Numbered from the stretch's first letter, positions 46,589 through 47,904 are shown. The stretch: 47,904 nucleotides of DNA from Aquificota bacterium (GCA_013153315.1 JAADES010000049.1:1-47904), one strand, 5' to 3'. A program made the numbers and translations. Notes: generated by a model from the sequence alone, not told the origin.

Positions 46589-46652
46589 AATTTAACCTCC
46601 TTAAGGTTTTTCCTCTTCAAATTTAACCTTTAAAGGAATAGCTCCCTATGCG

Positions 46653-46671
46653 TTTCCTCAATTTGAGGAAA
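46653..46671. promoter_or_regulatory. perfect 9-1-9 palindrome between divergent iscA-like gene and cas2
   Basis: TTTCCTCAA-T-TTGAGGAAA, ending 18 nt before the cas2 ATG. Confidence 0.55.
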
Positions 46672-46689
46672 TATTAACTTTATTTTCTA

Positions 46690-46938
46690 ATGCCTAAATT
46701 TTTAGTTTGCTACGATGTAAGCTCCGAAAAAAAACGTTCCCGCCTTAGGAAGAAGTTAAAAGACAGCGGGCTTCACTTGCAATGGAGTGTCTTCGAAGTG
46801 GAAGCCGACAATGCCGAGCAAATTAGGAAATTCCTTTCGGAAAAAATAGAAAATTTCGAAAGTTTAATGGTTTTTCGAATTAAAAAACTTGAAGCCCGCT
46901 TAGGCACCGACTGGGAAATTCCCGAATATCGAATTTAA
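46690..46938 (+). CDS. cas2: CRISPR-associated endoribonuclease Cas2 (orphan)
   Basis: FLVCYDVS..KKR.RL.K.LK..G.HLQWSVFE is the canonical Cas2 N-terminal pattern; 82 aa. Confidence 0.88.
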   Translation: MPKFLVCYDVSSEKKRSRLRKKLKDSGLHLQWSVFEVEADNAEQIRKFLSEKIENFESLMVFRIKKLEARLGTDWEIPEYRI

Positions 46939-46947
46939 AATAAAATC

Positions 46948-47766
46948 ATGGATATCTCTTTCAAAAGCTTGGCTCGGCTCTTTAGGGAAAAGAAACTTAT
47001 AACCATAGCTTCAAAAAATACCCCCTACCGGTTTCAAAATGGAAAACTGACCGTTTTTAGGGAAAGTTTTGATTACAAAAACCTTTTGGGGGTAATCTTC
47101 TTAGAAAAACCTTCATCCCCTCCAAGGGTTAGAAAAGTTCCTTTAATTTTTCTTAGACCTTTTGAGGTTAAAAACATTTCCCTTCAACCCACGGACGAAA
47201 CAGTTTTAAAAGCTCTCCTTTACGAGGTTTGTATAAAAGTGGGTCAAGACCTTCAAAAGTTTTTGTCTAAATACCTAATCCACAAAGGCGGAGGAATAAC
47301 AGTCCTCGCAAGGGGGAAAAGGAAAAGCTACTACAAACGGGTTAACATGCATTTTATTCCCTTTTATGTGGACTGTAAATTTAATCTTCCTATAGAGCAG
47401 TATTTAGCCCGTATTAATCACTATCTGAGGGAAACCTACTATGGTGAGCTAAACTTATATGCCCGCCTCTCCTTGGCTACAGGAATTTTAATAGCCCACG
47501 CTTGGAATATAGAATTACCAGAACCTAAGGAATATTTACCGCTTTGGTTTCTACCTTCGGCCTACGCTCTAACCCAAATGCTTGATTTAAAAGAAAAAAC
47601 CTACGGGTTGGAAAGTTATGCCAAAATCCCTCCGAGGGGTGCTGTTATGGCCTTCTACAACGAACTTATAAACAATGAACCCTATCAGGAATTCCTTCTA
47701 AGGGACTTGATAAATCTCCAATCGAAGGGGGATTTTTCAACAAATTACCGTTTTAGATGGTTTTAA
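46948..47766 (+). CDS. hypothetical protein, possibly highly diverged inactive Cas1-like
   Basis: Intact 272-aa ORF 9 nt after cas2, with Cas1-like N-terminal strand pattern and aromatic C-terminus. The ORF is solid; the family call is tentative. Confidence 0.5.
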   Translation: MDISFKSLARLFREKKLITIASKNTPYRFQNGKLTVFRESFDYKNLLGVIFLEKPSSPPRVRKVPLIFLRPFEVKNISLQPTDETVLKALLYEVCIKVGQDLQKFLSKYLIHKGGGITVLARGKRKSYYKRVNMHFIPFYVDCKFNLPIEQYLARINHYLRETYYGELNLYARLSLATGILIAHAWNIELPEPKEYLPLWFLPSAYALTQMLDLKEKTYGLESYAKIPPRGAVMAFYNELINNEPYQEFLLRDLINLQSKGDFSTNYRFRWF

Positions 47767-47786: not shown

Positions 47787-47903
47787 CTAAAACCATGAAA
47801 GATTATGTTCCTCAATATAAGCGTATAAAAGTTTTATTAGTCGGGCTAGTTGTATAGGTGTCCATGGCTCGATGCTAATTTCTTCTTCTTCTTCTTCAAA
47901 TTT
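47787..47903 (-). CDS. 3' end of a CDS entering from beyond the window
   Basis: Open minus frame ...KFEEEEEEISIEPWTPIQLARLIKLLYAYIEEHNLSWF* with TAG at 47787-47789. Confidence 0.55.
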   Translation of the reverse strand, partial: KFEEEEEEISIEPWTPIQLARLIKLLYAYIEEHNLSWF

Positions 47904-47904
47904 A

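Follow-up and report, generated by a model that had tools for sequence, protein, structure and literature searches.

When a gene for Cas2 is followed directly by an intact gene of no recognisable family, the question arises what the second protein is, and whether the two genes serve CRISPR adaptation or have been put to another use. The pair considered here, called cas2' and X, sits at the 3' end of contig C36 in the 1.35-Mb genome (58 contigs) of an uncultured Aquificales bacterium. This one entire contig is what we call the window, that is, the whole stretch of 47,904 nucleotides that was analysed. The features around the pair are the following.

46652..46672, plus strand: 9-bp hairpin, 17 nt 5' of the cas2' start codon; a landmark only
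46690..46938, plus strand: cas2', encoding an 82-aa Cas2 paralog of the lineage found 3' of cas1 in related modules
46948..47766, plus strand: X, encoding 272 aa with a predicted Cas1 fold and without conserved Cas1 catalytic residues (pseudo-Cas1)
47787..47903, minus strand: 3' end of a Rep_3 initiator gene; multi-copy, outside the cas module

The gene pair

A first-pass annotation of this DNA had described an orphan cas2 gene and, 9 nt behind it, an intact frame of 272 codons; a convergent gene came next, and no array and no other cas gene was present. The reading frames are indeed as it described them: cas2' and X are separated by 9 nt, X is uninterrupted, and the convergent gene is the ORF fragment 47787-47903(-). 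On its 5' side the pair is preceded by a divergent 128-aa gene and then by housekeeping genes.

For the window itself, the absence of arrays and of further cas genes holds as well. A genome-wide k-mer scan found no periodic CRISPR-like repeats on C36, whole-genome searches with the Cas1, Cas2, RAMP and Cas6 families gave no other match on it, and the remaining 44 window ORFs of at least 90 aa match no Cas model (PADLOC, E<=1e-5). The results of a promoter and terminator scan were not above those for shuffled sequences (three terminator-like signals found against 2.4 expected, the hairpin 5' of cas2' among them), and the direct repeats D5 (71%) and D10 on either side of the pair were dismissed as chance.

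That the first gene encodes a Cas2 protein with its YD motif kept could be substantiated. The protein passes the cut-offs of both Pfam CRISPR_Cas2 (PF09827; E 1.2e-11, 45 bits, curated cut-off 23.8) and TIGR01573 (E 1.7e-8, 34.6 bits, cut-off 24.5), and 20 PADLOC Cas2 models match it. Its N-terminus reads MPKFLVCYD, where D9, the aspartate of the YD motif at the end of strand 1, is presumably the catalytic one; all six orthologues in the alignment have it. The C-terminal tail, GTDWE(I/V)PEYRI, is strongly conserved in all five close orthologues.

X is a different matter as regards family assignment. Nothing in Pfam, NCBIfam or PADLOC matches it at E<=1 and nothing in PHROGs below E 0.2; its profile has no match in the PDB at E<=10, and the ESM Atlas gave no usable match. 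While a word-indexed homologue search recovered X alone, an exhaustive HMMER search of 1.84 billion proteins yielded nine representatives, X included, at E<=1e-3. Among 178 genomes of the phylum, X is present in two, its own (G000) and G005 of the same genus, the same two that an earlier, narrower search had found among 61 relatives. Matches to FeoB in G015 and G059 (E 1e-3 to 6e-3) were considered spurious on reading the ORF. In the eight genomes of the genus it is only G000 and G005 that have X, and both carry a low-scoring, module-type Cas1. A metagenome scan with a four-sequence X alignment gave eight X loci; one of them, L043 on a 183-kb contig, is 98% identical to the window.

It is important to point out that X, despite its rarity, is a maintained gene. 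The dN/dS ratio is 0.12 between the window and L043 (15 synonymous and 7 non-synonymous differences) and 0.054 between L044 and L046 (15 synonymous, 3 non-synonymous), and the neighbouring housekeeping genes have values of 0.07-0.17. These ratios show that X is not decaying, in agreement with the first reading of an intact gene. Length and architecture are preserved among members at 27-40% identity. X therefore constitutes a very small family under purifying selection.

Predicted fold of X

The AlphaFold2 model of X, calculated from a 9-sequence alignment, has a pLDDT of 90.8 and a pTM of 0.89, and only residues 265-272 are disordered. When the model is compared to the PDB with Foldseek, all matches listed are Cas1 or casposase, the best being 4p6i_E at E 4.2e-3, with probabilities up to 0.97; none is found at E<=1e-3. 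VIA-align places 7kft_E first, with Z 12.6 and an rmsd of 3.9 Å over 232 of the 272 residues (model residues 9-272). It gives 67 chains at Z>=8, and the best 50 entries are all Cas1 or casposase. A search independent of Foldseek, over 48,161 representative chains, has Cas1 or casposase as its top 12 (Z 11.8 to 6.0), while the 13th chain, an unrelated one, drops to Z 4.8. The isolated C-terminal domain of E. coli Cas1 (3nke) aligns with X residues 79-267, which means that both domains are covered. According to the model, X has the two-domain Cas1 fold.

The sequences are much less informative. X and the solved Cas1 proteins share about 10% identity. With hhalign, the X family aligned to 22 Cas1 sequences gives only the N-terminal beta domain, 57 columns in register, at E 0.066; at low stringency, a collinear alignment of 226 columns is obtained at E 0.044, and the global comparison of X with Cas1 gives nothing. 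Since this homology is below significance, common descent rests on the fold and on the gene context. The proposal that X is Cas1-like is thus borne out by the structure comparisons and remains below significance in the sequence comparisons.

Catalytic residues

The invariant metal-binding and catalytic residues of Cas1 are, in E. coli numbering, E141, H208 and D218/D221, as given in the available part of PMC4046053. All 22 Cas1 sequences of this order share E141, H207, D219 and E222 (own-Cas1 numbering). The 13 X-family sequences, by contrast, have no invariant histidine column and, in the C-terminal domain, no invariant acidic column. The best acidic columns of that domain are D142 and E239, with 10 of 12 each. 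A closer subfamily keeps D142, E239 and E248, and the acidic columns are broken in the divergent members P0003, P0004, P0006 and P0009. The low-confidence hhalign alignment (E 0.044) pairs H207 of Cas1 with a gap in X, D219 with Y196 and E222 with L199.

The loss of the Cas1 catalytic set across the family strongly suggests that X is catalytically inactive, which agrees with the first-pass description of an apparently dead protein. The sequence PLWFLP, which had been placed by eye at the D..E..RP position, falls in the same place in the low-confidence hhalign alignment. The C-terminal NYRFRWF, in turn, had been taken as an echo of a Cas1 tail; this finds no support, as 11 of the 12 other family members lack the motif, which in X lies in a part of the model with pLDDT below 50.

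Other positions of X are invariant or nearly so, namely C95, Q103, Y109, F136, C143, P191, Y206, P228, R230, G231 and N238. C95 is located in the long helix 84-108 and C143 in the loop after the 116-133 hairpin; the two cysteines may form a disulfide or a metal site.

A four-gene adaptation module

We now turn our attention to the gene context in relatives. In G005 the order is cas1 (302 aa, PF01867 E 3.6e-54), cas2' (84 aa, 74% identity to that of the window), X (257 aa, 38-40% identity) and cas2 (87 aa, PF09827 E 2.3e-19), with gaps of 3-7 nt, and the genes that come next are those for Csx1 and for a SAVED-domain protein. Among the loci that hold the start of X, cas2' lies immediately 5' of it in seven of eight, the exception being L045 with a two-gene insertion. 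Of the informative loci, five of seven have cas1 immediately 5' of cas2', and four of six have cas2 immediately 3' of X; in both cases the exceptions are the window and L043, and it is in these two that cas2' is without an adjoining cas1. The cas2'-X pair is the middle of a four-gene adaptation module, cas1-cas2'-X-cas2. The same two genes had been suggested as a module to look for in other genomes, and they are found together in G005 and in the metagenome loci. The pair had also been thought to reverse the usual cas1-cas2 order. When the module is read as two units, cas1-cas2' and X-cas2, this reversal vanishes.

Two individual cases can be mentioned here. In L045, the insertion between cas2' and X (L045:334-1086) consists of two convergent small ORFs (97 and 152 aa) that, by eye, look like a nucleotidyltransferase/HEPN pair. 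In the metagenomic protein P0005 (201 aa), the N-terminal domain of a Cas1 is fused to the C-terminal half of an X, with the junction at a motif that both have, RFG(K/R)K. The chimera appears to stem from a deletion of the 3' part of cas1, cas2' and the 5' part of X; alternatively, it could be an assembly artefact. The idea that the RFG junction is a structurally equivalent crossover point was rejected, because the X helix 84-108 aligns with the C-terminal domain of Cas1.

The two Cas2 proteins of the genome are each 74-76% identical to their counterparts in G005. In a 26-row Cas2 tree, the cas2' of the window groups with the other copies located 3' of cas1 (families f1 and f2; support 94/88), and the other cas2 copies of the f1 and f2 modules form a second group (support 86/87); both groups are below the starred support threshold, and the modules of family f3 are not placed. 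This division of the tree suggests that the two Cas2 paralogs separated early and do not replace one another.

Related modules of the same Cas1 clade

The Cas1 of the module belongs to a low-scoring Cas1 group, with about 175-190 bits against PF01867. Nine further modules of this group were examined (L040, L041, L042 and L058-L063). In all nine, there are two cas2 genes around cas1, and six have in addition an extra ORF of 216-302 aa. The other three (L058, L060 and L061) have the arrangement cas2-cas1-cas2' and no extra ORF, which indicates that this Cas1 clade can manage without a pseudo-Cas1.

Two of the extra ORFs encode what we call Y proteins, those of G013 and G027 (L040:308-1171 and L063:5036-5944), which are unannotated and encoded between cas2 and the active cas1. 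Their comparison to Cas1 by hhalign indicates full-length homology (probability 94.8%, E 5.4e-8, 247 columns), and they have other residues at the Cas1 catalytic columns. Like X, Y is thus a second, apparently inactive Cas1 paralog beside an active cas1, in the same Aquificales Cas1 clade. Unlike X, it is detectable as Cas1 by profile, and its gene is 5' of cas1, whereas X is 3' of cas2'. Y and X have no significant similarity to each other (E 0.092).

The ORFs of 216-219 aa that precede cas2 in L041 and L059 do not resemble Cas1, X, A8 or Y (E 0.14-0.47). For the ORFs of 240 aa located 3' of cas2' in L042 and L062, hhalign gives just a match to the motif NxVLSY, at E 0.13, and the structure model, with a pLDDT of 32.8, is unusable.

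The dispersed module in this genome

In the genome under study, the remaining genes of the module are located elsewhere. The sole cas1, at C28:11584-12462, has tyrS on one side and the gene of a rhomboid protease on the other, and neither a cas2 nor an array adjoins it; E141, G142, H207, D219 and E222 are all present, and the protein is 56% identical to the module Cas1 of G005. The second Cas2 gene is at C12:42454-42717, beside a leuS fragment, and its counterpart is the module cas2 of G005, to which it is 74% identical. All four adaptation genes are intact, yet they are spread over three loci, and only the cas2'-X junction has been kept.

In the k-mer scan the genome has, in addition, at least 10 CRISPR arrays; their period is 65-86 nt, with repeats of 35-37 nt and spacers of ca 40-48 nt. 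There is also a type III-B locus with cmr1-6 and cas10 on C25, and further RAMP genes are found on C17 and Cas6 on C56. Since the same genome has these arrays and the cmr locus, besides a cas1 that is intact and another cas2, the pair is not orphaned from CRISPR, and its initial description as an orphan is not supported.

The dispersal is accompanied by a peculiarity of X. The X of the window lineage is 41% identical to that of G005, and the X of G005 is 70% identical to that of L046, while Cas1 is ca 56% identical in all three pairs between this genome, G005 and L046. The faster divergence of X may reflect changed constraints after the dispersal of the module.

Possible functions

The explanation that we favour, and which in our judgement has about an even chance of being right, is that X is an inactive Cas1 paralog that works with a dedicated Cas2' in a heteromeric integrase, where the integrase step is one that we infer. 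In solved Cas1-Cas2 integrases, the catalytic and the non-catalytic position are occupied by copies of one and the same Cas1. In the present case X would take this structural position, the integrase would be composed of Cas1 and X together with Cas2 and Cas2', and it would load spacers into the many type III-style arrays of the genome. Distinct catalytic and non-catalytic Cas1 subunits in solved integrases are described in the available part of PMC7969031. A precedent is provided by Y, an apparently inactive Cas1 paralog in the same order, and the two cas2 genes in all nine further modules of the clade likewise fit this explanation. Several observations speak against the heteromeric integrase. 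They include the sequence homology of X to Cas1, which is below significance, the D142, E239 and E248 of the closer subfamily, which could belong to a new active site, and the three of nine related modules that have no extra ORF. They also include the dispersal of the four genes in this genome, which is unusual for the subunits of one complex, and the divergence of X from G005 (41% identity), which is larger than that of Cas1 (56%) and of the two Cas2s (74-76%). Predictions of the complex of X with Cas2' and with Cas1 gave scores of 0.00 and 0.00, which, with controls absent, argue neither for nor against binding.

One can speculate further that the whole clade has split the Cas1(4)-Cas2(2) integrase into a catalytic Cas1, a dead Cas1 (X or Y) and two non-equivalent Cas2s. 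Such an integrase would be asymmetric, and its polarity could set the orientation and length of spacers in PAM-less type III arrays. We put this forward tentatively, as something possible rather than probable.

The conservation of the pair can also be read in another way. X and Cas2' could form a separate Cas1-Cas2-like complex that acts as an accessory of adaptation. Its task might be, for instance, to capture prespacers, to measure their length, to hand them over or to restrain integration, and it would then be functionally comparable to Csn2 or Cas4 and not to an integrase subunit. The junction between the two genes is the sole one to have survived the dispersal of the module, they are adjacent in seven of eight loci, the C-terminal tail of Cas2' is retained in 5 of 5 close orthologues, and the three of nine modules without an extra ORF imply that the core integrase needs none. 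However, the two-Cas2 design is found also in modules without X, which means that Cas2' is not specific to X, and we consider the accessory complex rather unlikely. The first-pass annotation, which called the module exapted, had proposed among other roles that the pair regulates by binding DNA or resembles a toxin-antitoxin system; taken as a role outside CRISPR altogether, this would leave the pair without a part in spacer acquisition. In line with this, the pairs of the window and L043 lie among housekeeping genes without cas1, the 8 kb downstream in L043 are free of arrays, the divergence of X has been faster in the window lineage, and the inactive Cas1 homologues of Cas1-solo group 1, outside CRISPR loci, offer a precedent according to the available part of PMC4046053. 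The gene context points the other way: cas1 is upstream in five of seven and cas2 downstream in four of six informative loci, the genome still has its cas1, which is intact, and the other cas2, together with many arrays and a III-B effector locus, and the genomes of the genus that have X (G000 and G005, 2 of 178 in the phylum) are those with the low-scoring, module-type Cas1. This context argues for a role in adaptation rather than for a toxin-antitoxin pair with a VapD-like Cas2 toxin, and makes exaptation distinctly unlikely; none of the present results favours a regulator or a toxin-antitoxin function.

That X is still an enzyme is a reading to which we give little credence. It would account for the conservation of D142, E239 and E248 in the closer subfamily and for C95, C143, R230 and N238 being invariant or nearly so, and the same caveat was made for Cas1-solo group 1 by Krupovic et al. 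(available part of PMC4046053). On the other side, there is no conserved histidine column, the acidic columns fail in P0003, P0004, P0006 and P0009, and in the full modules an active Cas1 is encoded alongside. Finally, X could be the decaying remnant of a duplicated cas1 that has stayed open by chance, which would fit with the lack of a family match, the fast divergence and a C-terminal domain shorter than that of Cas1. Given the dN/dS values of 0.12 and 0.054, the length and architecture kept at 27-40% identity, and a confident, compact model obtained from only nine sequences, this scenario is already disfavoured and highly improbable.

Relation to known systems

X resembles Cas1 (PF01867) in having the predicted two-domain fold, over residues 9-272, and in adjoining cas2 in an adaptation module. 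It differs from it in that no sequence model matches, the C-terminal domain is shorter and the E/H/D/E columns are not conserved, and also in that it accompanies a real Cas1 instead of replacing it. If the fold assignment is correct, there are Cas1-superfamily members that the sequence models of Pfam, NCBIfam and PADLOC all miss, and surveys of "missing" or "orphan" adaptation genes would consequently undercount.

Additional adaptation proteins encoded within the cas1-cas2 module are well known, namely Csn2 and Cas4 in types II-A, I and V. X is like these as an extra protein of the module; the folds, however, are unrelated, and X appears to be a copy of the integrase itself. To our knowledge, a single Cas1 gene provides for both the catalytic and the structural jobs in every spacer integrase solved so far, and we know of none in which the two halves of the symmetric Cas2 dimer come from more than one Cas2 gene. 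If the heteromeric integrase were confirmed, it would be the first division of the labour of an integrase into separate genes, namely those for an active Cas1, for a dead protein of the same fold and for two distinct Cas2 paralogs, and it would provide a direct handle on the integrase asymmetry that controls the orientation and length of spacers.

The closest parallel for the loss of the active site is Cas1-solo group 1 (Krupovic et al. 2014), whose members have an incomplete active-site set and are thought not to be endonucleases, according to the available part of PMC4046053. X is similar in being a Cas1 relative without the full catalytic set. The two are compared here by description: the group is recognisable by sequence and stands alone outside CRISPR-cas loci (same part of PMC4046053), and X does neither. 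It is always beside cas2' and, in related loci, inside cas1-cas2'-X-cas2, so that it is not a stand-alone gene. The literature searched, including the available part of PMC9755687, mentions no inactive Cas1 paralog inside a cas1-cas2 module and no modules with two Cas2s; the supplementary tables of the CRISPR classification papers may list them.

The 3' end of the contig

C36 ends 138 nt past X, within the multi-copy Rep_3 gene. The last 91 nt of the window recur without a difference, as the reverse complement, at the start of C25, which shows that the assembly broke in a repeat. The Rep_3 gene has nine matches in the genome, six of them at contig ends, and is therefore probably an element, mobile or integrated, at which the assembly breaks up. 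Its full copy matches PF01051 and PF21205 (WH1+WH2). Besides the window, copies are found on C25, C54, C58, C49, C20, C12 and C14; one abuts X and another the cmr locus.

The window departs from L043 exactly at the stop codon of X, and the Rep_3 fragment is the edge of an insertion missing from L043. There, X is followed by nth and pheS, whose copies in the present genome are on C53. At the end of that contig, 677 bp (C53:8627-9303) are absent from L043 and close with a complete CRISPR repeat and part of another. This repeat is of the family used by the arrays on C6, C17 and C54, of which it is a degenerate variant. The earlier claim that there is no array is thus true of the window and not necessarily of the locus. 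The inspection of the sequence beyond position 47904, which the first-pass annotation had called for, accordingly gives a CRISPR repeat at the end of C53, a contig that is placed next to C36 by synteny. No contig bridges the Rep_3 fragment and the C53 repeat. In this strain an array probably lies between X and nth, and the most likely layout, with C36 and C53 joined by synteny only, is cas2'-X, the convergent Rep_3 element, an unassembled stretch, the array and nth.

The 677-bp segment contains, in addition, three copies of a short dispersed element that occurs at 32 sites in the genome. It consists of CAATAGCAC, a variable GC-rich hairpin and GTTAACGC, in that order, and the stems of the hairpin vary between copies yet stay paired.
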